From: a virus
Lineage: Duplodnaviria; Caudoviricetes
Reading direction: 5' to 3' (one strand)
Virus record (IMG/VR): IMGVR_UViG_3300012344_000011
Location: 32,001 to 96,000 of that record
Length of the DNA stretch: 64,000 bases
A program made the translations under genes and the position numbers. The number at the start of each line of letters is the position of its first letter. Within the stretch, counting starts at the first letter, position 1. The notes under the pieces are model-generated. The model did no database searches, was not told the origin of the DNA, and saw only the letters and a list, made by a program, of their open reading frames with translations. Positions 1,862-63,998 of this stretch are shown in pieces.

Positions 1862-3587
1862 ATTATATACTACTGAATCATATAAATCTCCAATAGAGCA
1901 AGTATTAAAAGGTAGAAAAATTGATAATATTGAAAAATGGCTAAACGCAAATGAAGAAGATATTGAATCTTGGAGAGCATTAAAGAATATCGAAAAAGGT
2001 GTTTACAAAATGAAAGAGGTGATTGACAATGGAGATGATGCAACAGTTATTGTCGATTGTGATGTTGATGGATTCACTTCAGCGGCAATACTCTTCAATT
2101 ATTTGTATAGTTTGTATCCTTCTTGGTGCTGCGATCACCTTGGTTACCTACTTCACAAAGGGAAAGAACACGGACTTTCTGACTTGATTGAAGAGATTCC
2201 TGGAGGGACAAGACTAATTATTTGTCCAGACAGTGCTAGCAATGATTATGAGCAGCACGAATTTTTTGCTGGCAAGGCAGACATACTAATTCTTGATCAT
2301 CACGAAGCACCGCACGAATCAGAATCAAAGAATACTATTACAATCAATAATCAACTTTGTGATTATAAGAATAAAATGTTAAGTGGCGGTGGTGTTACTT
2401 GGCAATTCTGTAGAGCTTATAATGAAATTTTTGATTTACAAGGTGAAATAGATAATGATCTTTGTGCCCTCTCGTTAAGTGGTGATATGATGAGTTATCG
2501 CTCTATAGAAACAAAAGCTCTAGTTGATATTGGTTTTTCAAATATTACAAACCCTTTTTTCCATCAAATGACTTTAGATAATGAATATACCTTGAATAAG
2601 TATGGCGGTATAGGTTATAAGGCAGTAGCTTTCGCAGTAGTTCCTTTCATCAATGCAACAATTCGTTCTGGCACACAAGAAGAAAAAGAGTTGGTTTTCA
2701 AAGCAATGTGTAAACAATATTGTTTTGAAAATGTTCCTAATACCAAGAGAGGACATAAAGGAGAAGAGTGGTCACTTTATAAGCAAGCCGCATATGTAAC
2801 TGCAAGTGCTAAACGTAGACAAACAAATCTTGAAACGCAAGGTATAGAGCTATTAGAGAAGAAAATTGTTTCTGACAACCTATTGGACAATGCAGTTTTG
2901 ATCTTTAAATGTGAACCAGGAGAAGTTGAACCAAATATTCGAGGATTAGTAGCAAATAAATTTGCTTCTAAATATCAGCGTCCTTGTTTAGTGCTTACCA
3001 AGAGTAAGAGTAAAGATAATCAAGAATATTCTTATAGAGGTAGTTTGCGGAACTATGGTCAATCTGAAATTGAAAATCTAAAACAAATTTTTGAGGATAC
3101 TGGTTTGACAGAGTATGTTCAAGGACATGAGTCTGCGGCTGGTATTGGTATTGCAGAAAGTAATTTACAAAATTTTATCAATGTTACAAATGATTTACTA
3201 AAAGATAAGGTTGGAGAAGTTGTCTTTTGGGTTGATTATATTTGGAAGATGAATCAAGCAGATCCAAATAAACTTTTACAATTGGCAGAAATGAGTTCAT
3301 TTTGGGGACAAGATGTTCCCGCAAGCCAAGTTGCAATTACAGATATAGATTTATCTCAATGTAGATTGTCATTATGCGGGCAGAAGAACAATACTTTGAG
3401 AATGGTTCTTCCTAATGGACTCGTGTTAGTAAAATTTGGAATTGATGAAGAGATCTTTGATAGTCTGACTGGTCCAAATCTTTTTATGTCGTGTATTGTT
3501 ACGCCAACCCGCAATGAATGAATGGGAAAAGTTTCAGGAGAAGGTCTAATTGATGATTTTGAAATAAAAACTAAGTGGATATTCTAA
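1851..3587 (+). CDS. recJ: RecJ-like ssDNA exonuclease (DHH family), 1 TGA=Trp
   Basis: DCDVDG, ILDHH and QGHESAAG motifs. TGA 3519 read as Trp gives NEWMG (RecJ NEW/FxG motif) and runs to TAA 3585-3587. Confidence 0.9.
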
Positions 3588-3597
3588 GGAGAATAAT

Positions 3598-4125
3598 ATG
3601 CCTCTAAATATAGGTTATCTAAAAGCTAAGACCGATAAAGCTAGTGACGAAGTATTTACTCCTAAGTATGCAGTGTTGCCATTAGTGAAGTATATTCCTA
3701 ATGGTAGCACTATTTGGTGTCCTTTTGATACATTAGAAAGTGAATATGTAAAAGTTTTTATTAAAAATGGGCATAAAGTAATTCATAGTCATATTGATGA
3801 AGGGAAGAATTTCTTTGAATATGAACCTGAAGAATATGACGTAATTATTTCTAATCCTCCTTTTAGTATAAAAGATGATGTAATCAAACATTTGTACGAA
3901 TTAGACAAACCTTATGCAATGCTTTTACCAATTCCAACTTTACAAGGCCAAAAAAGATTTGAATATATGAAAGATGGTTTACAAATTTTATCTTTCAATA
4001 AAAGAATAAATTTTTATACGGATTCTTCTAGGAAAGAAGTACAAAAAGGCGTTTCTTTTGGATGTGCTTATTTTTGTAAAAATTTTCTTCCTAAAGATTT
4101 AATTTTAGAAGAATTAGAAGATTAA
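3598..4125 (+). CDS. Putative N6-adenine DNA methyltransferase
   Basis: DEVFTP, IWCPFD and ISNPPFS motifs. Confidence 0.75.
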   Translation: MPLNIGYLKAKTDKASDEVFTPKYAVLPLVKYIPNGSTIWCPFDTLESEYVKVFIKNGHKVIHSHIDEGKNFFEYEPEEYDVIISNPPFSIKDDVIKHLYELDKPYAMLLPIPTLQGQKRFEYMKDGLQILSFNKRINFYTDSSRKEVQKGVSFGCAYFCKNFLPKDLILEELED

Positions 4126-4137
4126 AAGGTTATAAAT

Positions 4138-4839
4138 ATGATATATAGAAACGAATCTTGCTTTACTTTTTTACCAACAATTAAAAGTAAAACAATAGAT
4201 TTGATTATTACAGACCCTCCTTATGAAATTTCAAAAATAACTAATTTTCAAAATGGAGAAGAGACTGGAAAAGATACAGACAGGTTTAGAATCTCTATGG
4301 ACTTTGGCGATTGAGATAATAATTTTAGTGGATTTGATATTGTTATCAAAGAATGTTATAGAATTTTGAAAGACGGAGGAACTCTAATTTGTTTTTATGA
4401 TTTGTGAAAAATTACTGTCCTAAAAGAATATTTTGAAAATGCTAAATTCAAACAAATTCGTTTTATTGAATGGCTAAAAACAAATCCTGTTCCTATCAAT
4501 TCAAAAATCAATTATCTAACCAATGCTAGAGAAGTTGCTGTTCTTGGAATAAAAAAATCTAAGCCAACATTTAACAGTAGTTATGATAAAGGGATCTATG
4601 AGTCTCCAATTTGTCACGACAAAGGAAGGTTTCACCCTACCCAAAAGCCAGTTGAATTGATTGAAGCCTTAATCGTTAAGCATTCAAATGAAAAAGATGT
4701 TGTGTTAGATTGTTTTAGTGGAAGTGAAACTACTGGTGTTGCCGCTCTAAAACAAAACAGAGATTTCATTGGGTGTGAAATTTCTAAGAAATACTATAAT
4801 AAATCATTAGAGAGATTGAATGAACAACTGTCAATGTAA
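4138..4839 (+). CDS. Beta-class N4-C/N6-A DNA methyltransferase, 2 TGA=Trp
   Basis: DLIITDPPY, HPTQKP and VLDCFSGSETT motifs. Frame open from ATG 4138 with TGA at 4312 (DFGDWD) and 4405 (FYDLWK). Confidence 0.88.
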
Positions 4840-4869
4840 TATATTTTATATTGACAGTTTTATTTTTTT
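4826..4869 (+). terminator. Intrinsic terminator hairpin overlapping the dnaE -35 box
   Basis: AACTGTCAATGTAA / TTATATTGACAGTT inverted repeat followed by a T-rich tract. Confidence 0.6.
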
Positions 4870-4923: not shown

Positions 4924-7900
4924 ATGAAGAGTTACTCCCGCTTCGAGTGCCATCTGCACACAATGTATAGTAATCTTCGTTTGCTCGACAGTATTAATCG
5001 TCCAAAAGAACTAGTAGAAAGGGCAATTGAACTTGGTCTTGCGGGAATCGCTATTACAGATCATGAATCATTATCATCGCATGTTGAGATAGATCGATTG
5101 ATGAGTCAATACGCAGAGTCTAATCCAGATTTTAAGATTGCAAGAGGTAATGAAATTTATCTGACTGATACAAGAGAAGTCGGTCAAAAATATTGGCACT
5201 TTATTCTAATTGCAAAAGATGCAATTGGTCATAAGATGTTAAGAGAATTATCATCAAATTCTTGGATTAATAGTTATTATGACAGAGGTATGGAAAGAGT
5301 TCCAACTTTAAAAACTGAACTTGCGGCAATTGTAGAAAAATATGGACAAGGACATCTTATTGGATCTACTGCTTGTTTAGGGTCGGAGATTGACAATTAT
5401 ATTTTAGAGCTAAACAATGCACGAATTGTTGGTGATAAACGGACAGAGCAAATTGCTTATCAAAATATTCTAGATTTTGTTCAATTTGGAAAAAGAATTT
5501 TCAAAGATGATTTTTATCTTGAGGTTCAACCAGCTAGATCAAAAGATCAATTAATTGTAAACAATATGATGGGTGGAATTGGAAAAGCAACTAATACTAA
5601 ACTTATTGTTACAACAGATGCGCATTATTTAAAAAAAGAAGATCGATGGGTTCATAAAGCTTTCCTAAATTCTAAATCTGGTGATAGAGAAGTTGATAGT
5701 TTTTATGAATATACATATTTACAATCAACAGAAGAGGTTATTGAGAATCTAAAAGGAACGAATCTTGATTATTATGAACTTGAAGCAAACACTATAGAAA
5801 TTTATAATAAAATTGAAAATTATAGTTTGTTAAGAAATCAGCACGTCCCGCAAATTCCTGTAAAAGAATATCCAAAAGTTGATTATAATAGTAAGTATGA
5901 AACTTTGAACTATTTGTATAATAGTGATAATGTCCAAGAAAGATATTGGGTTAATCAATGTATAGATAGAATGAAAGAACTTGATATTTATAATGATGAA
6001 TATCTTGAAAGATTAGAGTATGAAGCAGATATTAAGAAGCATGTCGGCGAAAGACTTGGAAGCTGTATTTTTTCTTATCCTATCTTCCTTCAACACTACA
6101 TTGATTTATTCTGGGAGTGCGGCAGTCCTACTGGGTGTGGTCGTGGTTCGAGCGGAGCTGGTCTTAATCATTATTTGTTGGGTGTTTCGCAAACAAATCC
6201 TGTAGAGTCTAGATCGCCTTTTTGGAGATACATGAATAAAGAACGTGTTGAATTGCCTAAACGATAAATATTGGGCAATTAAAAGCAGGTGAACCATTTC
6301 TCGTGGGTGTCGCAATTATGCGGCTAACGGGGGAAGCTAAAGCCAATTAGGTATGCCAATCCCGTGCTAAGTCTATTCTATATAAATATAAAAATAATTA
6401 TAAAATTAGATGTAAGAAAAGAGTATTCTAATGGAAAAAAGAATCAAAGATTTTTCTGATTATGCAATTACAGACAGTGGCAAAGTTATTAGTTATAAAT
6501 ATAAAACCCCAAAAGTTTTATCTACGTGATGTCAAAAAGCTGGATATGAAAATATTAAGCTGTCAAAAAATAATGAAACATATCATTTTTTAGTGCATAG
6601 ACTTGTTGCAGAAGCTTTTATTCCAAACCCAGAAAATCTTCCAGAGGTAAATCATAAAGATAATAACCCTAAAAATAATTGCATAGAAAATTTAGAGTGG
6701 TGTACTAGAAAATATAACTTAGATTTAAGTTATAAAACAATGTCTCCAACAAGAAATTACGTGGAAGTTTATCTGATAAGAGAAGATACAGAAGAGATAA
6801 TCAAAAGATTCAAAACAATTAAAAGTGCAGCAGAATATGCCAATAAAAATTTTAACTGTAGTGTTAGTGGAATGATAAGAAATTATCGTTCTAATGGATA
6901 TAGAATAGAAAAGTGTAACGACTAAATAAAGAACAGATGTTTTTTGAGAGAAGTAGAGATGAGAACTACTTCGTAGTGCCTGCCGCTATAAGCGATGATA
7001 TAGTCTAATCCCCTAAGAAATATCGGAAAACCGAGGGTGTAAATGGATATCGACCTTGATCTAGCTCCATCTAAGCGAGAGCTAATTTTTGAAAAGATTA
7101 GGGAAGAGCGTGGTGAGCTTGGTTGTATTCAAGTTTGTACTTTTGGAACAGCTTCAACAAAAAGTGCAATTCAAATTGCGTGTAGAGGATATAGAACAGA
7201 AGAATATAAAGATGGAATTGATAATGATACAAGTTTATACATTAGTTCACTTGTTCCATCTGAGCGTGGTTTTTTGTGGTCAATAAATGATGTAGTACAC
7301 GGAAACGAAGAAAAAGGGCGTAAACCAAATAAGACATTTATCAATGCTGTGAACCAATATCCAGGTTTGTTGGAAATCATCATTGGTATTGAAGGATTGG
7401 TTGTTTCTCGTGGTATTCATGCATCTGGTGTTGTTTTTTATGACGAAGATCCATTTGAAACGGCTTGTTTTATGAAAGCTACAAATGGTTCTATCATAAC
7501 GCAGTATTCGTTGCATGATGCAGAAGCTTGTGGTAAATAGTATTGCCACTAAACATCTAATCGTTTATCAGCGATGTGTTGTAGGCATCTCGATATTATA
7601 AACGAGAGTAAGTAAAAAATACCTACAATGCACCAGGGAAGCCTAAACCTTTATAAGGCACGGTAATCCTGGGCTAAAGTAAGTAATTTATATCTTTTCT
7701 AAACATTAAGAATAAAAAGGATAAAATAATGTATGTATATCTAATAACTAACAAGGTCAATAACAAAAAGTATGTAGGAATAACAAATAACTATAAGAAA
7801 AGATGAGCAAATCATAAAAGCAATAATAATCCTAGTATGGCTATAGCCAAAGCAATAAAAAAATATGGAGTAAAAAATTTTACGTTTGAAATTGTTGAAG

Positions 7901-10760
7901 AAAATGTTCCTCTTGATGATATAGATGCCAAAGAGCAATATTATATTGAATATTATAATACACACGTATCAACTAATAAAGGATATAATATTTCTAAAGG
8001 TGGGAGATATAATATTGCAAATAGCACTCATATAGGAGTAAAAAATGGCAGGGCGTTATTATCTAAAGAACAGGTAGAATATATAAAATCACATCGAAAC
8101 ATTCCTGAATATGTATTATATGATGAATTTTCTGAAATTCTTACATACACAGCATTTAGAGATATATATTTAGATAAAACGTATAAAGATATAACTCCAA
8201 CAGTAGATATATGTCCAAATAATTTTGAATTTTCTTGTCAATTTAATAGATCTAAAATTACATATGATGAAGTGGTAGAGCTAAGACAGAAATATAAAAA
8301 TAATATATTTTGAAAAGATGCATATACTGATTACTATAAAACGCTTTATGATGAAATGACTTTTTGAAACATATATGTTGGGAATAGATTCAAATTAGTT
8401 AATCCTGAAGTTTTTACGCCAGAAAGAAAACATTATCAATCAATGTTATCACATTCTGGAGAGAACAATGGAAGAGCCAAACTAAAAAAAGAAGATGTTC
8501 TTAGTATAAGATATTTATTTAAATCTAATCAAAAAACTAGAGCAGAACTTCAAGAAAAATATTCTTATGTTTCAAAAACGACTATTAAATAATGTTATAA
8601 ACTATAAAACTTGAAAAAACATATAAATTACTTATAAATGCCAATCGACTATCCCTCGGAAGGGGAGTACAACTACTATTGATACGTAGTTGGAAAAGGT
8701 GTTCTCAATATTGATTGAGTAAGATATAGTCAGGACTTGTGGAAACACAAGAATAACTGGATACAAAGTACGATTTCTTGGTTACAGAACAAATGGATAT
8801 TATGGCACAATGTATTCAACTTCTCCAAGAGAACGGATATATGGAAAAAAATTTGACGTTGCGGCAAGCATATGATAAATATGTTCATCCAGATAAATTA
8901 CCTCTAAATGATAGTAAATTGTGGGATGCAATAGATTCTGCGAATTTATTAGCTCTCTTTCAGTTTAATACCGCTGTAGGAGGCAACATTGTGCGACAAT
9001 TGAAGCCAAGGAACGTAGAAGAATTAACAGCTTGTAATGCATTGACAAGATTAGCAGGAGAACCTGGAAAAGAAAGACCTGCTGATAAGTATTATAGATT
9101 TAAGAATAATTTGTCTTTATGGTATGAAGAAATGAACGAATATGGATTGACGCAACACGAACAAAAAGTTCTTGAAAAATATATGTTGACAGATTATGGT
9201 GTACCATCTTCGCAAGAAATTCTTATGACAATCTTGATGGATAAAGAAACATGCGGTTTTAGTCTTGCAGAAGCAAATACTGCAAGAAAGATTGTTGCAA
9301 AGAAGCAGATGGATAAAGTTCAGGGATTGAAAGAAAAAATTCTTGAAAAAGCAAAAAGAAAAATTTTGGGACAGTATATATGGGATAATGTTATTATGCC
9401 GCAAGCATCTTATTCGTTCTCCAGGATTCACGGATATAGCTATTCGCTTATTGCATGTCAAGCCGCATATTTAGCAACTTATTTTCCTTCTATCTATTGG
9501 AATACTGCATATCTAAGGGTAATTAGTGGTCTTGATGCAGATGCAAGCTCTAATTATAGTAAGATTGCAAAAGGTGTTGGAGATATAATTGAACACGGTG
9601 TAAATGTTTCATTGATTGATATTAATGAGTCTGATTATATGTTTAAGCCTGATGAAAAGAATCACGCCATTCGTTATGGACTAAAAGCTTTGAATGGTGT
9701 TGGTGGAGAGATCATCGAAGAGATTGTTAATAATAGACCATATGAAGATATATATGATTTTATGGAGAAAGTCAAATGCAATAAAACAGTAATGATAGCA
9801 TTGATAAAATCTGGCGCATTTGATAGTTTTGATACTCGTGAAAACATTATGAAAGAATACATTGGAATTACATCTGAACCAAAAAGACGTATTACAATGC
9901 AAAATTTTAATGGTTTATTGGAAAAAGGACTTTTACCGCAAGAGTTAGATTTTCAAAAGAGACTTTTTGTTTTCAATAAAGCACTAAAAAAGAATTGTAA
10001 ATTAGATGGTTATTTGATCTTTGAAAATAATTATTATAATTTTTACGAAGAGTTCTTTGATATTGATTTATTAGAACCTAAAGGAAATGTATTAGTAATG
10101 TCTGAGGGTCAATGGAAGAAACTATATGATAAAAATATGCTTCCCGCAAAAGAATATATTACTAAACACAAAGAAGAACTTTTAAAACAACTCAATGATA
10201 AATTGTTCCAAGAGGAATGGAATAAATACGCGGCTGGATCATTAAGTTCTTGGGAAATGACAAGTCTTGGTTTTTATTATCACGAGCACGAACTAAAGAA
10301 TCTTGATAATGAATACTACAATATTTACAATTTTAATGACTTGCCAGAAGAGCCTATTATAGATTATATTTTTAGTAGAGGCGGTCACGATATTCCAATT
10401 TATAAAACTTGTCGATTAGCAGGTACAGTAATTGCGAAAGATGATCTGAAGAGTAGTATAAGTATTTTGACTGTAAATAGCGGTGTTGTAAATGTAAAGT
10501 TTACAAGAGACTATTATGCAAAATATAATGCTCAATTATCTGAAATTGGTGTTGATGGAAAGAAACATGTCCAAGAAAAATCTTGGTTCAAACGTGGAAC
10601 TTTAGTTATTGTAAACGGTTTCCGCAGAGGAAATATGTTTGTAACGAAGTCTTACAAAAAATCAAAGTCACATCAGTTATATAAGATAACAGAAGTTTTT
10701 GATTCAGGTTTAGTCAATATGACAAATGCAAGATATGGAGAAGAAGAAGTCTTACTATAG
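4924..10760 (+). CDS. dnaE: DNA polymerase III alpha subunit; exons 4924-6258, 7046-7534, 8760-10760 (~1274 aa)
   Basis: PHP motifs (HLHTMYS, AITDH, DAHY), GRGSSGA, HASG and YSFSRIH. Splicing restores ELP|DIDLD and EACG|DTKYDFL. Confidence 0.95.
6259..7045 (+). mobile_element. Group I intron 1 in dnaE
   Basis: P1 TTGCCT/GGGCAA with U.G at the splice site, P7 elements ACGACTA and GATATAGTC, terminal G 7045. Confidence 0.92.
6431..6925 (+). CDS. Intron-encoded HNH homing endonuclease, 1 TGA
   Basis: VHRLVAEAF...VNHKDNNPKNN...NLEW motif; frame open from ATG 6431 through TGA 6527. Confidence 0.88.
7535..8759 (+). mobile_element. Group I intron 2 in dnaE
   Basis: P1 GTGGT/GCCAC, P7 elements TCGACTA and AAGATATAGTC, terminal G 8759. 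Confidence 0.92.
7729..8592 (+). CDS. Intron-encoded GIY-YIG homing endonuclease, 3 TGA
   Basis: MYVYLITN...YVG...KR(TGA)ANH, E..YI and GYN motifs. TGA at 7804, 8311, 8365. The likely last residues lie in a shifted frame ending at 8626. Confidence 0.85.
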
Positions 10761-11632: not shown

Positions 11633-14600
11633 ATGAAAGTAATCAAACGAAACGGCGATTTAGTTGATTATGACTTAGAAAAAATTTCAATTGCTATTAG
11701 TGGTGCTTTTGAAGAACTGGGGTCGGTTTTTGAAGATGCTAAGATGCTAGATGAAATCAATTCTAAAATTGAATCAACAAAATCAAAACAAATTTCAGTA
11801 GAAGATATTCAAGATATAGTTGAAGAAGCGCTCTGTAAAAACGAATATGTCAATGAAGCAAGAGCCTATATCAGATATAGGTATAAAAGAGAATTAGTTA
11901 GAAAATCTAATACAACAGATCAGTCTATCAAAGAATTGCTTGATGGCAATAATGAATACTGGAACAAGGAAAATAGTAACAAGAATGCTAAATGGGTTAC
12001 AACACAAAGAGACTATATCGCAGGCATTACTTCCAAAGATATTGCTCGGAGATTTATTTTTCCAGAAGACGTTGTAAAAGCACACGATGAAGGTGTTATT
12101 CATATTCACGATATGGATTATGCTGCACAAAATACTCTTACCAATTGTTGCTTGATCAATCTAGATGATATGCTACAAAACGGAACAGTTGTTAATGGTA
12201 TTACTATTGATCGTCCACATAAACTTTTAACGGCGATGACAATTGCTACTCAAATTATTGCTGCTGTAGCATCTAGTCAATACGGTGGGACAACTATTAC
12301 ACTAACACATCTAGCTCCATTTGTTAGAGACAGCTATAATAGATATTTTGAAAAATATCAAGAATGGGGAATGGATAAAGAAAAAAGTATTGAGTATGCT
12401 GAAAAAGATGTAAAAAAAGAAATTACAGACGCAATTCAAACTCTTAATTATCAACTCAATTCACTTACAACAACTAACGGTTAATATATTGGCTGCTATA
12501 AACAGTAATGTTTATTAGAAAAGATGGTGAACTTACAAATGTAGGGTGTGCGAGAAATCGTGCTAACGGTGAAAGCTAAAATATAATGCTAATTTATAAA
12601 ATTACTAACAATATAAATAATAAAATTTATATTGGTCAAACTTCACAAACTTTTGAAAAAAGAATAAAACAATATAAAGATGATGTTCGTTCCAGACCAG
12701 AGTCAAGACCTATAATAATGGCAATAAAAAAATATGGCTTTGATAATTTTTCATTTGAAATTATTGAAGATAATATTCCAGACAGAGAAACTTTAGATAA
12801 TAAAGAAAAATACTATATAAAAATTTTTCAAAGTTTGGTTTCTCAACATGGTTATAATGTTGAGCTTGGAGGTAACGGTCCTGGAAAACATTCTGAAGAA
12901 ACAAAAAGAAAAATTGGAGAAGCTCAAAAAGGCTCTTTGAATCATATGTATGGTAAAAAAGGATTCGACAATTTCTCTTCAAAAGCTGTAATTGAAATTA
13001 CTACTAATAAAATATTTGGTTCTGCTTCTGTTGCAGCTGAAAAACTAGGCGTAAATTTTTCTCACGTTTGCGCTGTTGCAAGAGGAGACAGAGGGAGTAC
13101 AGGTGGATACGTATTTCGTTATTTAGACGAAAACAATAATCCAATTAGACCAGAGCGTCCAGCACATATAAAGTTTATGAAAGTTAGAGATAGCATTTTA
13201 GACGAATATAAATATTTATTATAAAAATTATACTATGCTAATACCGTGCTAAGTCTTGTAAAACAAGAAAAGTGTAACGACTATTCCGAGAGGAAGTAGC
13301 TTCAAGGTGAAAGTCCTTGTTGCGAAGCGCCATCCTCCTGTTTAACGCAGGATGAAGAGATAGTCTGGCTTCTACAGAAATATAGAAGGAGGCGCCGCAA
13401 GCGCCATTCGTAAGTGTAATGATGTATCTTGGAGAAACAGAAGAGTATAAGAAAGAACTATCAATGTTAATAGCAGAAATGCTTCATCAACGAATAAAAG
13501 GAATGAAAAATAAAGTTGGTGTTTATGTTGCTCCAGCTTTTCCAAAACTTCTTTATGTTCTTGAAGAAGATAATATTTCCCCTGGCACTAAATATTGGTG
13601 GTTAACAGAACTTGCAGCTGAATGTACTGCAAAAAGAATGGTGCCGGATTATATTTCAGAAAAGAAAATGAAAGAATTAAAAGTTTCTAAAGGTAAAATT
13701 TCTGGTGATGGAGATTGTTATCCTTGTATGGGTTGTAGAAGTTTTTTGACACCAGATCGTTCTGGAAATGGTTTCAATAATATTGCAAATGCAAAAAACT
13801 GGGATGGAAAACCAAAATACTATGGGCGGTTGACAGCCTAATTGTTAAGCCGCCGTTAAACTGTGTGAACGTAAGAAAAAACGGTGTGGGAAATATTCCT
13901 GCTAACGGTGAAAAACTTAATGTCAACACCGTGCCAAGTCTTATTATAACTAACTAATTGATTAATTGGAGTTGATTATAATGCAAAATATAATATATAT
14001 CAAAGATAAACAATTTAAACAATTTCGTAATACAAAATATTATTGTAGTCAGGATGGAGAAATTTATTCTGACTGGTCACAAAAAATATTAAAACACCTC
14101 TACCGTGAGAGCGGCAACAAAAAATATGCCTATGTAGATATTAATTTTGGGCAAGGACAAAAGCACGTACCCGTTCATAGGATTGTATATGAAACTTGGA
14201 TTAGACCTCTAAAAGAAAATGAACAAGTTAACCATTTAGACGACAATTCTTTGAATAACAATATTAATAATCTTTATGTTGGAGATCAAAAAGAAAATAT
14301 TCGTGATTGTTTCAAAAACGGGCATAGAATTGGTAATTGCTGGATACTAACAGTTTTTGATAAAAAAGAACAAAAAACAATTACTTTTTTTCCTGCGAAA
14401 GATTTTATTGAATATAGTGGTCACTCGTGTCAAAATGGTGGGGTGTCAAGAATGTTTACTCGAAATTGGTTCAAAAAAAGATATAATATTATAAGTTATT
14501 ATCTATGTAAAGATATTAACGAAAAGAAAGGTGTAACGACTATTCCTGATGAATGTAAGGAAGTAGGCTAGATTTTATCACTAGTCGAAGCGCACAGCTA

Positions 14601-16808
14601 CTATTTGAGATAGTAGAAGAGATAGTCTAAATTAAAATTTTAATTTGTTAACATTGGCGTATCAACAGTTAATTTAGCCTATATTGGCTTGAAAGTTTAT
14701 AATGATTTTCATAACAACACAAGAACCCAAAATATTGAAAATATGTTTTTCAAAGAACTTGATGCCGCTTGTGAACTTTGTCATAAGGCACAACAAGTTC
14801 GAGCAGATAGACTCTCGCATACAAAAGCAGAAGTTGCTCCAATTCTTTGGTGTGATGGAGCTTTAGCTAGACTCAAGCCAAATGACTCATTGGAGGTATT
14901 AATCCATAACGGTTATTGTACTTCTTCTCTTGGGTTAAAATAGCGGCCCAAGTAAAAATCTTTAAATTGCGGGGACACCCTTAGAGCTTTAGCAACCAAA
15001 CCAGTATAGGGATATGCTGGTGGCGAGGTCAGCGACCAAGGTAAGGTAATATCGCTAAGGATTGGGCAACCAGACGCAGCGAAGTCTCTAGAACAGAGAA
15101 ACGTTCAACGACTATAATAAGATTCTAAGCATCGTATTTTTTATTTTATAAAAAGGGAGGTGAAAAAATGGGACTGATTTATAAAATTACAAATCCTTTA
15201 GATAACAATCGAAGTTATATAGGTCAAACCAGAGGAACTCTTGAAAAAAGATGGTATAAGCATACTACAACTCATATAAATTATGATGATTATTTTCATA
15301 GAGCTATTAGAAAATATGGGTCTGAGAATTTCATTGTTGAAGTTTTAGAAGAGAATATTCCTGAAGAGTTATTAAATGAAAAAGAAGCTTATTATATTGA
15401 AAAATATAATACTTATATTAAAAATCTTAATAGTAATGGATATAACCTAACTAGAGGTGGAGACTTTCATTTTCAAGATATTCATTGTTCTCTATCTCCT
15501 CAACAAGTAAAAGAAATTAAAGAGTTATTGAAAAATACAGATTTAGCAGAAAAAGAAATTGGTGAGATGTATGACGTTACTATTTATGCGATATCAGATA
15601 TAAACAGAGGAAAAAGCTGGCATGATGATAATATAGAGTATCCTATTCAGTTATATCAAACTAGAGAAATCACATATCAAGAATTTTGTAGTGTAATAGA
15701 ACTTTTACAAACAAATATGTTTTCTAGTCAGTGGATTGCTCAGAAATTAGATATAGGAAGCAACATTGTTTCTAAAATAAATACAGGTAAATATAAAAAA
15801 TTTTCCTATCCTTCAAATATTGCTTTTCCTATTCAAAGATATAAAAATGTTAGCAATAAAACAAAAATTACGGTAAAACAAAAAATACAGCTGCTAATAT
15901 ATTTTTTAGAAAATAATTTATCTATTGATAAACAAAAAGTAAGTCAAGAGCTTTCTATTTCTAAATCTTATATAAATAATATTATTAGAAACCAAAACCA
16001 CCCTCATTATTTAGATGATATAGCTTTTCCATTAACATTACACAATAAAGACCAAAATTTACAACTATTATATAAAAAGATAGACATTCTAAATAAATAC
16101 GATGCTTAGAATGGTATAGTCTACTCCCTTAATAAATACTAGGAAACTAGGGGTATAAAGGATGCGGGATTGTATGAATGTGTCAAAGTTATGACGGGTG
16201 AAAGCCATACTCAATCATATGGAAAACAATTTGGCTTGAAGATTATGCAATTTCTAAATGATAAATGCGCAGAGTGGAAAGCGGCTGAAAATATTGATTA
16301 TTCAGTATACGGTTCTCCGATAGAATCAACAACTTATAAATTTGCTAAAGCACTAAAAAATCGTTTTGGCATTATCAAAGGAATAACTGATAGAGATTAT
16401 ATTTCAAATAGTTATCATATTCCTGTTTTTGAAAAAATAAATGCTTTTGACAAACTCCTTATTGAGAGCGAATTTCAGCAGCTAAGCCCAGGCGGCGCAA
16501 TAAGTTATGTTGAATTACCAGATATGAAAAAGAATATTCCTGCTGTAATTGAATTGATCAAATTCATTTATGATAATATTATGTATGCGGAATTAAATTT
16601 ACATATTGATTATTGTATGGTTTGTGGTTATGATGGAGACATTCAGATTGATGATAATTTAGATTGGTATTGTCCTAATTGCGGCAATAGGGATCAAGAC
16701 AAAATGAATGTTACAAGAAGGACCTGCGGCTACTTGGGAACTAATTTTTGGAACAAGGGTAGAACGCAAGAGATCAAAGAACGTGTATATCATTTAGGAT
16801 ATGAATAA
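11633..16808 (+). CDS. nrdD: Anaerobic (class III) ribonucleotide reductase; exons 11633-12481, 13398-13830, 14648-14935, 16162-16808 (738 aa)
   Basis: ATP cone (VIKRNG), IHIHD, NCC, MGCRS, two CxxC and RRTCGYL glycyl-radical motif. Splicing restores TNG|QAPF, YGRF/NIG and SLGY/AGLYE. Confidence 0.95.
12482..13397 (+). mobile_element. Group I intron 1 in nrdD
   Basis: 5' exon ends in U with P1 CGGT/GCTG; ACGACTA and GAGATAGTC elements; terminal G 13397. Confidence 0.92.
12586..13224 (+). CDS. Intron-encoded GIY-YIG homing endonuclease (NUMOD3/NUMOD1-like C-terminus)
   Basis: LIYKITN...YIGQT, GYN, HSEETKRKI and GGYVFRY motifs. Confidence 0.9.
   Translation: MLIYKITNNINNKIYIGQTSQTFEKRIKQYKDDVRSRPESRPIIMAIKKYGFDNFSFEIIEDNIPDRETLDNKEKYYIKIFQSLVSQHGYNVELGGNGPGKHSEETKRKIGEAQKGSLNHMYGKKGFDNFSSKAVIEITTNKIFGSASVAAEKLGVNFSHVCAVARGDRGSTGGYVFRYLDENNNPIRPERPAHIKFMKVRDSILDEYKYLL
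13831..14647 (+). mobile_element. Group I intron 2 in nrdD
   Basis: P1 GGCGGT/GCCGCC; ACGACTA and GAGATAGTC elements; terminal G 14647. Confidence 0.92.
13981..14571 (+). CDS. Intron-encoded HNH homing endonuclease
   Basis: VHRIV...VNHLDDNSLNN..NNL motif; the ORF runs into the intron core. Confidence 0.88.
   Translation: MQNIIYIKDKQFKQFRNTKYYCSQDGEIYSDWSQKILKHLYRESGNKKYAYVDINFGQGQKHVPVHRIVYETWIRPLKENEQVNHLDDNSLNNNINNLYVGDQKENIRDCFKNGHRIGNCWILTVFDKKEQKTITFFPAKDFIEYSGHSCQNGGVSRMFTRNWFKKRYNIISYYLCKDINEKKGVTTIPDECKEVG
14936..16161 (+). mobile_element. Group I intron 3 in nrdD
   Basis: P1 CTTGGGT/GCCCAAG; ACGACTA and GGTATAGTC elements; terminal G 16161. The ORF is looped out of an 18-bp stem. 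Confidence 0.92.
15168..16109 (+). CDS. Intron-encoded GIY-YIG homing endonuclease with repeated HTH-like modules
   Basis: GLIYKITN...YIGQT...RW..H and GYN motifs; RBS GGGAGGTG. Confidence 0.9.
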   Translation: MGLIYKITNPLDNNRSYIGQTRGTLEKRWYKHTTTHINYDDYFHRAIRKYGSENFIVEVLEENIPEELLNEKEAYYIEKYNTYIKNLNSNGYNLTRGGDFHFQDIHCSLSPQQVKEIKELLKNTDLAEKEIGEMYDVTIYAISDINRGKSWHDDNIEYPIQLYQTREITYQEFCSVIELLQTNMFSSQWIAQKLDIGSNIVSKINTGKYKKFSYPSNIAFPIQRYKNVSNKTKITVKQKIQLLIYFLENNLSIDKQKVSQELSISKSYINNIIRNQNHPHYLDDIAFPLTLHNKDQNLQLLYKKIDILNKYDA

Positions 16809-16811: not shown

Positions 16812-17285
16812 ATGAATTATATGAAAATTAAAAATTATGATATAGCAAATGGTGATGGAGTAAGAACATCTTTGTTTGTGAGTGGATGTGATTTACATTG
16901 TCGAGGATGTTTCAATAAAGAAAGTTGGGAACTAAATGCAGGGCAATTCTTTAGCAGAAAAGTAAAGAAAGAATTACTCAAAAATTTAGAACCAGATTAT
17001 ATAAAAGGATTGTCTCTCTTGGGGGGCGATCCTTTTAACCCCAACAATGTAAAGGATATAGCATTCTTAGTAGAAGATACAAAAAGGTTATTTCCAGACA
17101 AAACAATTTGGGCGTGGAGTGGATATACTTTAGATGAATTGCTTGAACGAAAAGATCAATATACAAAAAAGATTCTTGATAATATTGATGTTTTAGTAGA
17201 TGGTCAATTTATCGAAGAAGAGAAAGACTTGTCTTTAAGATTTAGAGGTAGTAGAAATCAACGACTTATTTATTTTGCAAAATAA
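16812..17285 (+). CDS. nrdG: Anaerobic RNR activating enzyme (radical SAM)
   Basis: NGDGVR..LFVSGCDLHCRGCFN, LLGGDP and FRGSRNQR motifs. Confidence 0.95.
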   Translation: MNYMKIKNYDIANGDGVRTSLFVSGCDLHCRGCFNKESWELNAGQFFSRKVKKELLKNLEPDYIKGLSLLGGDPFNPNNVKDIAFLVEDTKRLFPDKTIWAWSGYTLDELLERKDQYTKKILDNIDVLVDGQFIEEEKDLSLRFRGSRNQRLIYFAK

Positions 17286-56853: not shown

Positions 56854-57651
56854 CTAACAGAATTGCCAGTGATATCCACCAGCAGTTTTTTGTTCATTAA
56901 TACAACACTTAGAAACTCCTGCGCTTGATTTTAAGCCAATTGCTTTTGCAGCTTTGCACGCAGAAGAATAAACCATATTTGTTTCTATACATTTAACAGG
57001 CTTTGCTCAAGCACTATTTTGACTTAATTTTTCCTTATGCTCTTCAGAGAATTTTTTCCCATACATGGGATTATTTTCGCCACAATATTTTCCCATTTTA
57101 CTTTCAGACAACTTCTGTCTATGTTCTTGAGATAATTTCTTCCCCTTTAAAGATTTGCCAAGTTTACGTATTTGTTCTCTCTGATTTTCTCTTAAACCAG
57201 AATCTCACTGCATTTTTGTGGTAGAACCACTTGGAAGAATCTCTATATTATTAGATTCACATGCTTTCTGAACGGTAATTGGAGCACAACGAAATTTTTC
57301 ACAAACTGCTCTTTCAGATCCTAGCTCAATATAAGCTTGTGCCAGTTCCTGATACCTATATTTTAACCTTCCTTCTCCGCCGAGGGTCATATTATAGCCA
57401 TTGTTACAACTATCTAAAAGAGAAATTCAATAGCGTTCTTTCTTATTTAGCTCAGAATCATCGCAATGCTCTAATTCTTGAATTTCAAAATTTTCTTCGC
57501 CATATTTTCTCATGGCCTTGTAGAGATAGTATGGAACTCCATTTTTGGCGTTTCTTTTGTGCTCTTTAAATCTATGTTCTATAGTTCCCGCAGTTTGGCC
57601 AATATAAATTTTTCCTGTAAGAACATTTGTTATTTTATAGATACAGCCCAA
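56854..57651 (-). CDS. Free-standing GIY-YIG homing endonuclease (265 aa), 3 TGA
   Basis: GCIYKITN...YIGQT, ERY(TGA)I...GYN, NUMOD3-like LSQEHRQKLS/FSEEHKEKLS and NUMOD1-like TAGGYHW; TGA at 57427, 57205, 57007. Confidence 0.88.
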
Positions 57652-58315: not shown

Positions 58316-59770
58316 TTAGACATTGTTAAACAAAGAAGCTAATTTTAAATTTATTTTAACTTCTGAAGCATAAACTTTTTCAATAGCAGGAATCGTTTTC
58401 GCAAGTCGATCTTCTATTACAATATCTTTTTTTCTAAGGTTGCTATTTCCAACAGAAAGCTTGACCTGCTCTCTTAAAGAATAAAAATCAGTCTTAATTC
58501 CATTGATTGACATATAGGTTTTAAAATCATTCGTCATTTTTTTCAACAAATCATACAAAGAATAAATTTTATTATTGACTATAATAAGAGCTGCAAAATC
58601 AAGTTCTGCACCGCTACCAGATAATGCGCGTAATGCAGCACTATATTTTCCATATTCAACCATTGTTCTTCAAGACTCTAAAGCTTTCCTATAAATAGAA
58701 GAGGCATTTCCTGTATCTCTTGCACCCCAAACTGCTTCCCAATGTCTCTTGGAAGAATCTGATTTTTTTCCTGCTAAAGAGAATGCATCAGCAATATATC
58801 TACCAATATTATATCTTGAATGTAAATTATTAATATATCCTTTACCAGACAAAACTTCTTCTCGTTGAGCTAATTTTATAGATGCACCAAATCTATAACT
58901 AATTTCATTTTGGGTCCAAGTAAGTTCAATGTCTTCTTTTGCATCGTGACCATATAATTCTTTACCTTTTTGTCCTGTTTGTTGTGCGCTTACTATACCA
59001 CCACTTGCGGAAAAAGCAGCGTCAATTGCTTTTTTTCCTTCTGTGTCAAATTTATCTCTTGCTAGATTGATAGCGTGAGCCGCAACTGGTTCATACATTA
59101 CACCCATAATAGCACTAAAACATCCTTGCACACTTTTTATTATACTATCAATTTCATCTTGTGAAGAGGGTTTCTCTCCTTTAGATATATTATCTAACTT
59201 ATTAATATTTTCTCTAAGTCTAGACACACTTTTTTTAACATTAACATCACTTATCTCAGATTCTAATCCAGAAATATAATAAGTATCTTTTTTAGTTTTT
59301 AGTATTTTTGAAATATTTGATGGAACGCCAGTATATGCTTCTTTTAATGCGGCTATAGTAATATCTTTACTAAATTTACCTAAAACATCAATTGAAGATT
59401 GTAAATTTTCTCTAATGGTTCTATTTATTTTTGCAGCTTGTTCAGGGATTTTTACTTCAATTTCTCCATCAGTCCTAAACCTAGAATTACCAAGACCTGC
59501 GCCAGTGTATAAACCAGTACTTTTATTGCCACCATCTTTAAAATTCAAATTATTAATTTGTTCTATAATACTAGAACCAACTTGACCATTGGTAGAAAAT
59601 GCTTCTAACAAACTTATTATTTTTTCATCCTTAATTCCAGTATTCTTATTATAAGCTCTAAACCTATTCAAAAATTCTTCTAGTATCTTTGTTTTAGCAG
59701 AATTTATGTCAAATATATAGGCATTTGGTCCATCATAATTTTTTAAACTCCAGTGTATATAAGTAGTCAC
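58316..59770 (-). CDS. Hypothetical tail-module protein (484 aa), 1 TGA
   Basis: Two track ORFs in one frame joined by TGA 58670; GTG start after GGAGGT. Confidence 0.75.
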
Positions 59771-59842: not shown

Positions 59843-61854
59843 TTAAGCTTGATTCCATCCACTAACTTTAGTCTCATCAGCACCAGCGCCTTCACGACCA
59901 TCTTCTGTTGTCTTAGCATCAGTATGTCCTGAAGCACTTGAAATAGTATCAATAATATCAATGGCATAGAGAACCTTACCAGACTCACCACGGACCTTAC
60001 CAAGAGTACAATCAATAGTAAAGTCAAATGTGGAGGGATCGCCAGTTGCAGCCATATTGAATGTAAAGTTACCCTGAATCTTACCTTTTGGAATAATGAA
60101 TGTCGCAGGGAAGTCTTTACCAGTACCTTCATCACGGAATAGGGTTTCAGCTTCAATATAGAAAGTACCACCAAAGTTTTCTGCATCAACAGTAAGAGTT
60201 GTTACAGGCATATCTGTTGTTGCATAGCAGTCAACTAAGCAAGTACGTCCATTATATTTGGCAATATCTTTAACATTAGCGGGAGCAAGAGTTATTACTA
60301 AACCATCGGTAGTATTAGCAGTAACATCATCAATTTCACCTTTACTAATATATTCAACAACGCCACTACCGTTATTATCTAAAATCATAGCATAAATTTG
60401 ATACTCTTCTGAAGTACCAATAGTTAAATCTCCGCCTTCTACTTTAGCAGAATCAGCTACATAGATCTCATATCCAGTAAAATCGTCTGCTTTAACAGTA
60501 ATTTTAGCACTTGTCACACCGCTATCTCCAGAAGTAACATCTACAGTGCCCTCAAGCGTTAGGTGAACCTTCTTAGCCTTCTTTTCTTGGTTAACAACAC
60601 CAGCGCCAGAAAGCATTGAGAAAGAAATTGGAGATAAAAGTGCTTCTGTAATTGTAAACGTTGCCGTTTTTTCACCTCGTTGTATTCCAATAAGTTCGTT
60701 ACTCTCATTGCGTTCTCTCATGAACTGCTGCACCTTTATTTATACGTGCAGATTAGACTATATCTTCATCCTGCTTTGCAGGAGTTTCGCACTTCGACCG
60801 CACTTGCGGCCTACGTCCCTGTGGACTAGTCGTTGAACCTTCTTTGTTTTAAACAATTCTCTCGTTGAGTTATTTTTTGTAAATTATTCAAATGATTATT
60901 AGATGGGTTTCCATCAATATGATCAATGACAAAGCCATCTAAATCAAAATCATTATGAAAAGTACAATAAACAAGTCTATGCACATAGTAATGTTTTTTA
61001 TTATTAAAACTTACTCTAACATATTTTTGGTTTTTATCTAAATATAACAACCTATTGGTTTTATTATTTTTTACTCTACCAAAAGATGAAACCGAGTACA
61101 TATTGTTCTCTTGGAAAACCATTCATTCTTCACCTTCTAAGTTTTCTAGGTGATACCTAGGAGGTCTTGGGTTATGCTTTTTTATAGCTTTATGTTCTGC
61201 GCAATTCTCTTGCGCATCAACCCATTTTAGGTTTTCTTTCTTATTATTCAATTTATTTTCATCTATATGATGAACATATGGTAAATTTTTTAGGTTTGGA
61301 ATAAAATATTCAGCAACAAGTCTATGAGCATAAACCATTTTAGATAATTTCCTTTTAGATGTTGAAACCTTATCTTGAATAGCTAATGCATACACTTTAT
61401 AACCTGTATTATCTATTTTTCCTTTTAAAAATCTAGATGTTTTTTTACTATATAATCTACCATCAGAATAAATCAAATAATCTGAATCTTCTTTTAATTG
61501 TTTAAAATCAAAGCTTGGCTGCTGATTGTCTTGCATAAAACCTCCTTTATTTCATACTCAATATAATATAACATAAAAAAGTCTTTTGTCAAGAGTTCCC
61601 AGCAATTCACGAAATTTTTCTATAGCGTATTACTACGCTACCTGAGCTAGTGTAAAACAATCCCAGGCAATTAGACGAGCATTACCACGCCCACCTTGCG
61701 CGTAGACTGTGGTAGTTGCGACTTCCATATTAGAAGCTGTTGCTGTATCAATATAAAGGCAAGGCTGATATGGCTCAAAGTGTTGAGAGCCAATGTCCAT
61801 CGCTGCTAAAGGACGAAAAGTAACATTAGCAATATCGCGTACACCAAATCGCAT
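59843..61854 (-). CDS. Major tail (tube) protein; exons 61854-61661 and 60677-59843 (342 aa; junction uncertain by 1-2 nt)
   Basis: YAQGGRGNARLIAW joined to GEKTATFTITEALLSP; FYIEAETLFR and ATGDPSTFDF motifs; strong RBS and a downstream terminator. Confidence 0.78.
60826..61536 (-). CDS. Intron-encoded tandem HNH endonuclease (236 aa), 1 TGA
   Basis: Two HRLV...H.D.N..NN...NL units joined by EGEE(TGA)MVF at 61123; RBS AAGGAGG. Confidence 0.85.
61563..61592 (-). promoter_or_regulatory. Possible SigA-type promoter inside the tail-gene intron
   Basis: TTGACA, then TG-N-TATATT (16-nt spacer) or TATTAT (18-nt spacer), upstream of the HNH RBS. Confidence 0.5.
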
Positions 61855-61998: not shown

Positions 61999-62748
61999 CT
62001 AATAAATGTTTGCAGACCAATCGTCAGGTTCTTCCATTTTTGAAACATCCATCATTGGAGTAGTAGAAACCTTCTGATATAAATCACTGCTAACTTTTTT
62101 CCAATAACGATTAAAAGCATTCTGTAATTGAAAAGGAGTATAATTATAAAGTATGTTTATATCCATATTCATTCCAATAGAAAGAATAGAAGTATAAGAA
62201 CCAAATAAAGTTGCTTTCTCTGACTCTTGCGGTCCAGATTTCATAGCCTGGATCTTTTCGTGAGCTTTCTGAAACTTTTTAGCCAACTCCGCAGCTTTAC
62301 CATTTACAGGATTATAATCTTTGCCACCTGAGCCAATTAAAAATAAATTCTTAATAACTTCTTTAAAAGCTTCAACATTGAATGGATTGATCATACCGAC
62401 CCGTTTATCTTCTTGTTTAAATTCAATATCCTCTTCAATATTTACTTCGTAATTAGGAAAAACTAAAATAAAAAATTTATCGATACTTTCTTTTAAAAAA
62501 CCATCTTGTCGCATCAAAGCAACATAAATCTGATAATCTGTATAATTATTCAAATCAGGATTACCTTCTTTGATTTTTTCAATATGTGATTCTGGTTTTC
62601 CAAGAAAGTTCGCAGCTAATAAAAAATCACTTTCTCCAAAAGCAACAATCTGTTTTATAGAAGGCTGAATTGCAATAATATTGCAAGCCTTAATAGGAAC
62701 AGGCTGTCCACTCAAATATAAAGCAATATCGTCTCCTTTTAACGCCAT
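61999..62748 (-). CDS. Hypothetical morphogenesis-module protein
   Basis: 249-aa ORF with RBS GAGGTG; YNP and YTPFQL motifs; between the neck and tube genes. Confidence 0.65.
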   Translation of the reverse strand: MALKGDDIALYLSGQPVPIKACNIIAIQPSIKQIVAFGESDFLLAANFLGKPESHIEKIKEGNPDLNNYTDYQIYVALMRQDGFLKESIDKFFILVFPNYEVNIEEDIEFKQEDKRVGMINPFNVEAFKEVIKNLFLIGSGGKDYNPVNGKAAELAKKFQKAHEKIQAMKSGPQESEKATLFGSYTSILSIGMNMDINILYNYTPFQLQNAFNRYWKKVSSDLYQKVSTTPMMDVSKMEEPDDWSANIY

Positions 62749-62759
62749 TTATCTCACCT

Positions 62760-63356
62760 CTATTGGGGAGTGTAAATGTCTTCAAATTTTTCTTCATCAT
62801 CAGAGCCATGTGTGGCAATGTATCTTAATATCATACCACCCCAGTTTTCATCAAGTACAACTTGTGAAGCGCCCATAAATTGAAGTGTTCCAATTCCACT
62901 TAGCCGACTTTCATTGAGAATACCATCAATGTATCCAGCAATTTGATGCGGCCGCAGCTTATAATCATCTAGCTCCCATTCATCAAGATGACATAGAATT
63001 GTAAAATTAATAGTACAATCACGATACTGCGCATTAGAAGTTGGAATAAAATCGTCAAATTCTAGGAGAATAGAAGATTTAATATATTCATGATTTCCAA
63101 ATTGAAATCTTGGAACAGTGCTAATATATTGTTCTTCTTTTAGTTTTTTAAGATTAAAATTATCAATAATCTTTTGATATTCAGGATTATCGCCTAAACA
63201 ATCAGGTTTATTAATAATCAATAATCTTTTTAACATATCGCTGTAAGGACGACTTTCAATAAACAGCTTCCTTAAAATTGTTTCAGTATCTTTCTCGCAA
63301 GAGAGGAAACTTGCTTTAAAATCTTTAGGAAGCATTCTACTTCTTATAGTTGGCAT
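62760..63356 (-). CDS. Probable tail completion/terminator-type protein
   Basis: 198-aa ORF with LRPHQIAGYIDGILN..LSGIG.LQF motif; function inferred from synteny. Confidence 0.55.
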   Translation of the reverse strand: MPTIRSRMLPKDFKASFLSCEKDTETILRKLFIESRPYSDMLKRLLIINKPDCLGDNPEYQKIIDNFNLKKLKEEQYISTVPRFQFGNHEYIKSSILLEFDDFIPTSNAQYRDCTINFTILCHLDEWELDDYKLRPHQIAGYIDGILNESRLSGIGTLQFMGASQVVLDENWGGMILRYIATHGSDDEEKFEDIYTPQ

Positions 63357-63365
63357 AATCCCTCC

Positions 63366-63998
63366 TTACAAAGATAATATATTAATAGGAAGAGTAAATT
63401 TCTCTTCGCCTACAGAATAAACTAAGCTAAAAGAACCTGTGCGGCCAGTGATAATCTCAAGTCTACAAGTTCCATTTTCTTGCTTCAAAATTTCTGCGCA
63501 AGAAGGATCACTAATGGAATACTCTCCGCCCGCAATATCAATAGTGTAAGCTTGAATATCATATGGATATACATTAGTTTCTCCTTTGATATCATAGGTT
63601 GGAGGAGCAACTTCAATGATTTCTGGTATATCCTCTGTAATACTATCAAAATATTCATTTACTTCTAATTCAATTATGCCCGGAACAGTAATAGAATCTA
63701 CAACTTTTATTTGCCAATTATGTCCGTTAAGTTTGATTATAGTAAATCTATTAAAGTAGTCTAAGGTCTCTTGGGTTCTTTTTATATATACAGTACCAGA
63801 GTAGTTCAAATCATTCCAATTTACATTTTGCTTCAAATTTCATCTAATAGCAGTCTCTATTGGACCTTGAAAATAAACCCAATAGGCATTGTCATTGATA
63901 GTTAGCTGATATCGACAACGAATAATTTCTGCTCTTAGATAAGCAATCTCTGTTAGAATTGGTAAATATACCATCCAAGTCGTATCATCATCAATACA
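63366..63998 (-). CDS. Head-tail region structural protein (5' truncated by window), at least 1 TGA
   Basis: Frame open from the window end through TGA 63840 (ETAIRWNLK); Ig-like C-terminus. Confidence 0.65.

Follow-up and report, generated by a model that had tools for sequence, protein, structure and literature searches.

In this work we analyse a 64,000-nucleotide stretch of phage DNA (the window), bases 32001-96000 of the single virus record IMGVR_UViG_3300012344_000011 (139,824 base pairs (bp), 34% GC; ∼96% complete by CheckV estimate). The sequence indicates that UGA is a tryptophan codon in this phage and never a gene terminator. It is very likely that the codon is read by the phage's own tRNA(UCA), in competition with host release factor 2, and this tRNA has a long extra arm whose loop has the layout of a tryptophan anticodon loop. 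Our best explanation joins the recoding and the phage tRNA(UCA) to an extra arm that would serve as a charging handle and to a timing linked to the phage's gene modules; as a whole, it is one in which we have high confidence.

UGA as a sense codon

With only TAA and TAG counted as stops, and with + strand genes taken to 20524 and - strand genes from 20578 onwards, the window contains 51 open reading frames (ORFs) and 20,010 codons. Eighteen of these genes carry in-frame TGA, 46 codons in total, and 33 carry none. The first and last TGAs lie at 3519-3521 and 63840-63842, the same limits that were given in a preliminary description of the window made from its letters; that description had counted 44 TGAs in 18 genes, and its gene number stands while its codon count becomes 46. 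This count is itself an upper bound, because the TGAs at 61558, 61552, 6527, 56540 and 63840 are near N-termini and may precede the true start codon. The TGAs at 3519 and 23612, only 21 and 3 codons ahead of the next stop, could be real ends. The window has 243 Trp codons, with 197 written as TGG (81%) and the remaining 19% as TGA. Gene ends are TAA in 35 cases, TAG in 16 and TGA in none, so the earlier statement that real genes end in TAA or TAG is true of all 51.

Under code 11 the longest open frame is 1105 codons, and this length is unchanged when either TAG or TAA is taken as sense. With TGA as sense, the longest frames become 3066, 2114, 1594, 1138, 1088 and 902 codons. The share of the window lying in frames of at least 300 codons is 0.51 under code 11, 0.72 with TGA as sense, 0.52 with TAG as sense and 0.60 with TAA as sense. 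As had been proposed, adjacent ORFs join in frame across TGA: six consecutive code-11 ORFs between 48065 and 56533 share one frame and together make a tape-measure protein of 3001 amino acids (aa). Coding density, which had been suggested for comparing the codes, does not discriminate. With greedy ORF picking over the whole genome it is 0.796 under code 11, 0.854 with TGA, 0.838 with TAG and 0.888 with TAA as sense; because this measure failed to separate the codes, we used ORF length and frame joining instead, and frame length favours TGA as sense.

TGA is commonest in the tail genes and homing endonucleases, and it makes up 23% of Trp codons in the - strand module versus 11% in the + strand module. 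A purine follows the in-frame TGA at 41 of 46 sites, versus 68% after TGG (chi-square p = 0.015); A, G and C follow TGA in 54%, 35% and one of the cases, and follow TGG in 34%, 34% and 12%. This is a modest hint of context selection at the base after TGA.

The Trp-containing motifs reported earlier are found at the TGAs: N-E-TGA at 3519 in the RecJ-like exonuclease, T-G-TGA at 18782 in RuvC, K-R-TGA at 7804 and R-Y-TGA-I at 57427 in the GIY-YIG endonucleases, as well as GYKFAG-TGA at 29032, WTYRM-TGA at 26686, N-G-TGA-D-G at 43899 and N-TGA-E-E-TGA at 52241/52232. To identify the inserted residue, we aligned the codons of orthologous genes. For the 1579-aa tail protein there are three relatives of full length, at 62-98% identity; their contigs translate only with TGA as Trp and are syntenic with the window over ∼24 kilobases (kb). 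On either side of the TGAs the orthologues are 67-100% identical and stay in the same frame, and TGA and TGG interchange freely. Across seven orthologous genes aligned by codon, the TGA columns hold TGG or TGA in other phages almost everywhere. Among the divergent pairs, which involve three divergent relatives, TGA is matched by TGG in 49 of 65 comparisons; the other partners encode Tyr (four), Gly (three), Ala (two) and seven residues seen once each, with neither Ser nor Cys among them. Using substitution frequencies from the same alignments, the log-likelihood of TGA meaning Trp is -94 and that of the next residue is -318. The test is not circular because TGG encodes Trp in every known genetic code.

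More distant homologues give the same answer. Among the 1168 homologues of the tail fibre, those below 50% identity have Trp at site 65 in 39 of 53 matches, at site 179 in 37 of 43 and at site 961 in 55 of 56; sites 52 and 315 fall in variable columns. This tally is partly circular because at least one match (P0012) belongs to another TGA-recoded phage, in which these columns also hold TGA. We therefore rely on the TGG codons and on a homologue that translates under table 11 (P0010), which has TGG at sites 65, 179 and 961. Two proteins of known structure can be added. Site 59 of the methylase aligns with a Trp of Helicobacter DpnA (PDB 5hek), and site 26 of the GIY-YIG endonuclease aligns with the Trp of the RW motif in T4 I-TevI (PDB 1mk0); a PDB search with the RuvC-like protein returned no match. 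The TGG partners, the lead of more than 200 log-likelihood units, the table-11 homologue, DpnA and I-TevI bear out the proposal that TGA encodes Trp, and Trp is enriched at the TGA columns of homologues.

The recoded tail-fibre homologue P0012 (L168:1001-4147), at 34% identity, has 21 TGA and eight TGG codons; recoding is much further advanced in that lineage.

The UCA tRNA and its extra arm

The genome encodes seven tRNAs, and only the one at 19418-19514 has a UCA anticodon. This tRNA has a 7-bp acceptor stem, a 5-bp T stem, a 3-bp D stem, G73 and an encoded CCA end. ARAGORN labels it 'SeC' on the strength of the UCA anticodon and the long arm. We rejected an identity as selenocysteine tRNA (tRNA-Sec), since the acceptor/T layout is 7/5 and not 8/5, the D stem has 3 bp and not 6, and Rfam matches only the general tRNA model (RF00005, 36.2 bits) and not the tRNA-Sec model. 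Nor does the molecule satisfy the canonical description of tRNA-Trp, which has a class-I body, an acceptor stem with A1-U72 and G5-C68, and a CCA anticodon. In Mycoplasma and Spiroplasma, tRNA-Trp(UCA) reads UGA as Trp through an ordinary tryptophanyl-tRNA synthetase (TrpRS), as do laboratory opal suppressors derived from tRNA-Trp. They share UCA and G73 with the tRNA of the window, but they are class-I molecules with a short variable loop, whereas the phage tRNA has a 23-nucleotide (nt) arm with a CCA loop and an acceptor stem that is not Trp-like. The whole genome contains no protein with an RF-1 (release factor) domain and no gene of the TrpRS/TyrRS family; lacking a TrpRS, the phage would therefore depend on a host enzyme to charge tRNA(UCA).

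The extra arm lies between the anticodon arm and the T arm, and its loop, GUCCAAA, follows the tRNA-Trp anticodon loop in having U33, CCA, A37 and A38. An IMG/VR scan for UCA tRNAs that share this anticodon stem and have a long variable region gave 67 loci, 55 of them ARAGORN tRNAs and 42 distinct. These fall into two groups, one of true tRNA-Sec-like molecules with varied loops and the other with a hairpin loop of the form N-U-CCA-A-N, which has 28 distinct members besides the tRNA of the window. UCCA is invariant in all 27 distinct hairpins that were aligned. In the same 27, the 5-bp arm stem is paired in 91.9% of cells with double changes at five of five pairs, and the covariation score was reached by none of 500 shuffles; sliding the partners destroys the pairing. 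This pattern of a fixed loop on a covarying stem indicates that the extra arm is under selection. G73 (tRNA position 94, before CCA) is likewise invariant in the class and is the discriminator of canonical bacterial tRNA-Trp. The tRNA of the window departs from the class in two ways, with an 8-bp arm stem and with its acceptor stem (GUACCGC/GCGGUAC, where most members have the Trp-like AGGGGC); a metagenome scan for its own lineage found no match. Full-text literature searches turned up no account of the extra arm, and we found none in the preprint of Borges et al., in Mukai's survey of Sec-like tRNAs or in the paper on phAss-1.

What might such an arm do? We give an even chance to the idea that it offers host TrpRS the CCA triplet that was lost from the real anticodon when this changed to UCA. 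A second class of suppressors bears on this question. The gut siphovirus phAss-1 (proposed Phassvirus; 136 kb, tape measure of 3149 aa) uses code 15 (TAG = Gln), carries suppressor tRNAs of its own and encodes no aminoacyl-tRNA synthetase (PMC10607447; OQ749652.1). Of its three CUA tRNAs, one has a length of 91 nt and an extra-arm loop with CUG, a Gln anticodon. With UCA exchanged for CUA on the same anticodon stem, a second IMG/VR scan gave 61 distinct sequences. Of these, 50 have the Gln-type motif U-(C/U)UG-(A/C) in the variable region and one has the Trp-type loop; the UCA set has 32 Trp-type and three Gln-type members. Shuffled variable regions give motif rates of 2% and 9%. Fisher's test of loop type against anticodon yields p = 5e-19, a value that overstates independence because the sequences are related to one another. 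Among the sequences collected, the association between loop type and anticodon is nearly complete. The sole CUA tRNA with the Trp-type loop GUCCAAA is on an IMG/VR contig (L167, match 7827-7879).

Trp-type loops with UCA and Gln-type loops with CUA fit a recognition tied to amino-acid identity, and would be expected if the arm presents the cognate anticodon. A modular form of charging, to which we give slightly less than an even chance, would follow: the anticodon is altered to read a stop codon and the added hairpin shows the host synthetase the original anticodon. Under this modular scheme, and with the same reservation, the triplet would be CCA for TrpRS here and CUG or UUG for glutaminyl-tRNA synthetase in the amber suppressors. 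A competing account, which we rate a little lower again but take seriously, is that the arm is not for TrpRS at all. It may be what remains of an anticodon-arm duplication, or it may act on a different partner, for instance a modification enzyme, a factor made by the phage, or the UGG specifier in the T-box leaders through which the host controls trpS. The geometry of the molecule favours this account: in known class-II tRNAs the variable arm is directed away from the anticodon, and it is not obvious how one enzyme would reach both. A passive leftover would be expected to drift, yet UCCA is invariant while the stem covaries, and the loop type follows the amino acid in both the UCA and the CUA sets.

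The surroundings of the tRNA vary between contigs. Parts of 18700-20600 are covered, at ∼90-95% identity, by contigs from pig, manure and gut metagenomes; among the differences listed for these contigs none falls within tRNA(UCA), a point on which we place no weight. One pig-gut contig has 852 other letters in place of 19415-20530, where the window carries the tRNA and a NUMOD endonuclease gene. A manure contig is missing the endonuclease gene alone (19645-20502). This gene is apparently mobile, and the slot occupied by the tRNA apparently variable. A separate 86-nt tRNA outside the window (L073:6950-7035, - strand) combines a CAU anticodon with A73 and a short extra arm that has a 4-bp stem and a GAAA loop. 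This arm is not an anticodon copy, and the candidate identities of the tRNA are Met, Ile2 or another.

Alternative readings and the host

Several observations weigh against a clean reassignment of UGA to Trp. The identity of the inserted residue rests on alignments only, and the TGA columns are less conserved than the TGG columns, with non-Trp partners in 16 of 65 versus five of 235 comparisons; decoding at TGA could be less strict than a clean reassignment. The tRNA also lacks the Trp-like acceptor stem of most of its class. Its class-II shape and G73 could attract seryl-tRNA synthetase (SerRS), which recognises both the long extra arm and this discriminator. SerRS might then charge the tRNA wholly or in part, so that UGA would mean Ser or be ambiguous between Ser and Trp, and the lower conservation of the TGA columns would fit such ambiguity. 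Against this, Ser occurs in none of the 65 partners of TGA in the relatives. Trp is dominant at sites 65, 179 and 961 of the distant tail-fibre homologues, and the invariant arm loop is that of a Trp anticodon. We consider charging by SerRS improbable.

The phage could instead follow a host that itself uses code 4 (TGA = Trp), in which case there would be no conflict of codes. The AT-rich genome is in keeping with such a host. The retention of TGG at four-fifths of Trp codons, the 33 TGA-free genes and the phage's own tRNA(UCA) are not. In addition, the known code-4 Mollicutes have no cell wall, and this phage carries endolysin-like and holin-like genes; relatives of its portal belong to phages that infect standard-code Bacillota. 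The portal, encoded just outside the window, is 57% identical to that of a human-faecal phage contig, 37% identical to that of phAss-1 and 25-33% identical to those of large siphoviruses of Enterococcus, Brevibacillus, Bacillus and Staphylococcus; Clostridioides phages are also among its relatives. We consider a code-4 host improbable, and marginally less probable than the Ser reading. Together with the anaerobic ribonucleotide reductase and the lysis genes, the portal relatives point to an anaerobic, walled member of the Bacillota, a kind of host that to our knowledge uses the standard code. We read the window as the central part of the genome of a tailed phage with a very long tail, which comes from an animal gut and most probably infects a walled Bacillota host with the standard code.

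We find it scarcely credible that the TGAs are real stops, whether in fragmented or decaying genes or with occasional readthrough by host tRNA-Trp in place of reassignment. The TGAs at 3519 and 23612, so close to the next stop, are the cases that would suit this idea; the frames of up to 3066 codons that open only with TGA as sense, the dedicated tRNA(UCA) and the relatives that keep the frame and swap TGA freely with TGG do not. Least probable of all, to a degree that we regard as negligible, is that TGA encodes glycine (code 25) or selenocysteine: code-25 phages are known (Borges et al., bioRxiv 10.1101/2021.08.26.457843) and the ARAGORN label points to selenocysteine, but the three Gly codons among 65 TGA partners led us to reject code 25, and the absence of Cys from these partners, the 7/5 layout, 3-bp D stem and Rfam match of the tRNA, and a total of 46 sites in 18 genes, far too many for selenocysteine, speak against the other.

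Gene layout, timing and relation to known phages

The window divides into two convergent modules (Table 1). The rightward (+) block encodes a RecJ-like exonuclease, DNA methylases, a DnaE-like polymerase in three pieces, guanylate kinase, NrdD in four pieces, NrdG, dUTPase, RuvC and six homing endonucleases. The leftward (-) block encodes endolysin-like, holin-like and LPP-like proteins, six very large tail proteins, the 3001-aa tape measure, two homing endonucleases and virion structural proteins. The two-way terminator at which the rightward replication module and the leftward late module meet is ∼1 kb downstream of tRNA(UCA).

Table 1. The UCA tRNA, its extra arm, the terminator between the modules and the TGA-bearing genes (window positions)
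Feature	Position	Strand	Details
RecJ-like exonuclease	1797-3587	+	1 TGA, codon 575; Pfam DHH, DHHA1, RecJ_OB; OB match spans TGA
N6/N4 DNA methylase	4138-4839	+	2 TGA, codons 59 and 90; Pfam 1.1e-38
HNH homing endonuclease	6431-6925	+	1 TGA; Pfam HNH_3; between two DnaE-like pieces
GIY-YIG homing endonuclease	7729-8592	+	3 TGA, no TGG; Pfam
RuvC-like resolvase	18740-19219	+	2 TGA; Pfam RuvC; directly upstream of tRNA(UCA)
tRNA(UCA)	19418-19514	+	97 nt; ARAGORN; anticodon TCA at 19450-19452; presumed UGA reader
Extra (variable) arm of tRNA(UCA)	19463-19485	+	23-nt hairpin, 8-bp stem, 7-nt loop GUCCAAA (19471-19477)
Two-way terminator hairpin	20537-20567	both	14 pairs (+), 12 pairs (-), each followed by a T run
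58-aa ORF	23600-23776	-	1 TGA three codons before the end, uncertain if read; no family match
178-aa ORF, lysis region	24761-25297	-	1 TGA; no family match
Tail fibre, 1081 aa	26323-29568	-	5 TGA; 1168 homologues
Tail-region protein, 898 aa	29570-32266	-	1 TGA; orthologues in contigs L001 and L004
Tail-region protein, 290 aa	32253-33125	-	1 TGA; relative in L001 has TGG at this column
Tail-region protein, ∼1100 aa	33252-36665	-	3 TGA; phrog_32343
Tail protein, 1579 aa, Listeria-Bacteroides repeats	36505-41244	-	6 TGA; Pfam Flg_new
Tail protein, 2104 aa	41259-47573	-	3 TGA, all kept in relatives; phrog_3267
Tape-measure protein, 3001 aa	47696-56701	-	8 TGA; Pfam PhageMin_Tail; relatives 3003-3089 aa
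GIY-YIG/NUMOD3 homing endonuclease	56854-57651	-	3 TGA; Pfam
484-aa ORF	58316-59770	-	1 TGA; no family match
HNH/NUMOD4 homing endonuclease	60826-61605	-	3 TGA, two near N-terminus; Pfam; phrog_2729 gene split across it
ORF running off the window (311 aa in whole genome)	63366-64000	-	1 TGA at 63840

The relatives of the ∼1100-aa tail-region protein start ∼40 codons later and have TGG at two of its sites and TGA at the third. An IMG/VR search with the 898-aa protein returned no relative. GenBank phages include no near-identical record for 24 kb of the window or for tRNA(UCA), and no RNA run among the public runs is listed as carrying sequence of this phage.

Several genes are interrupted by homing endonucleases. 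The DnaE-like polymerase lies in three ORFs (4924-6267, 7043-7540 and 8778-10760) separated by HNH and GIY-YIG endonuclease genes. NrdD lies in four ORFs (11633-16808) that match profile positions 1-154, 168-279, 295-361 and 364-562 and are separated by two GIY-YIG genes and one HNH gene, with NrdG next at 16812-17285. In neither of the split regions, DnaE and NrdD, did Rfam detect a group I intron at E values up to 0.1, and the DnaE-like split could reflect either introns or a truly split gene. On the other strand, the phrog_2729 virion structural protein (59843-61854) is in pieces of 73 and 296 aa with the TGA-bearing HNH/NUMOD4 endonuclease gene between them.

In the mechanism that we favour, tRNA(UCA) would be transcribed with the rightward module, host TrpRS would charge it with the help of G73 and the CCA-bearing arm, and the charged tRNA would compete with release factor 2 at UGA. 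A perfect sigma-70-type promoter (17292-17320) lies upstream of the tRNA, with the 20537-20567 terminator beyond it. Since the rightward module, with its replication and nucleotide-metabolism genes, has the tRNA at its end, complete tail proteins could be made only once this module has been transcribed. Such an arrangement would delay late-protein synthesis, in the way that Borges et al. proposed, although we consider this role in timing rather unlikely. TGA occurs in five genes of the + module itself, including those for RecJ, the methylase and RuvC, the last of which closely precedes the tRNA, and it is absent from the endolysin-like and holin-like genes, in contrast to the lysis-gene bias of Borges et al.; both observations sit poorly with a timing device.

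Outside the window, a 358-aa protein (L072:12463-13539, - strand) matches the PHROG 'sigma factor' family (E 1.4e-34) with two TGAs inside the match; Pfam returned no match for it and does not support the PHROG label. If this protein were a late transcription factor, the suppressor tRNA would be required for late transcription as well.

TGA-to-Trp recoding with a phage tRNA(UCA) has already been described for large gut phages (Borges et al., bioRxiv 10.1101/2021.08.26.457843), and the preliminary description was right to place this phage among the known code-4 gut phages, although it did not connect the recoding with the tRNA(UCA) of the window. The Agate clade of that study consists of AT-rich phages of ∼127-154 kb from the guts of cattle, pigs and other animals, with a phage tRNA(UCA) and in-frame TGA at Trp positions in mostly structural genes; TAA stops far outnumber TAG, TGA is rarely or never a stop, and replication genes mostly keep the standard code. 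The phage of the window resembles this clade in genome size, habitat, stop usage and the pairing of recoded structural genes with standard-code replication genes, a likeness that is drawn from these traits only. The same study found recoding to be biased towards lysis genes and proposed a role in the timing of late proteins; here, the endolysin-like and holin-like genes are free of TGA. Borges et al. cite the charging of tRNA-Trp-type opal suppressors in E. coli, leave open how host synthetases charge the phage suppressors and do not describe the structure of the suppressor tRNA.

With phAss-1 the phage shares, besides the related portal, recoding of a stop codon, a very long tape measure and a suppressor whose arm loop is of cognate type; it differs in reading TGA as Trp rather than TAG as Gln and in having seven tRNAs against 37. 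Bacterial tRNA-Sec and allo-tRNAs have 8/5, 8/4 or 9/3 acceptor/T layouts and a Ser-type identity (Mukai et al., PMC5389517). The tRNA of the window is like them in its long variable arm, in the UCA anticodon that some of them have, in its origin, since they too come from metagenomes and phages, and in the software label SeC, but it differs in its 7/5 layout and in an arm loop that is a conserved copy of the Trp anticodon.

The recoding is therefore one more clear case of a described phenomenon, and tRNA(UCA) is the more unusual part. For annotation, the practical consequence is that code 11 breaks up six tail genes, the tape measure among them. For the biology of these phages, a copy of the cognate anticodon loop that is matched to the inserted amino acid offers a bench-testable hypothesis for how hosts charge phage suppressors. 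If it is true, the extra arm would be a natural, portable identity element with which one small RNA lets a phage rewrite the code of a standard-code cell, and it suggests a design idea for engineered suppressor tRNAs.

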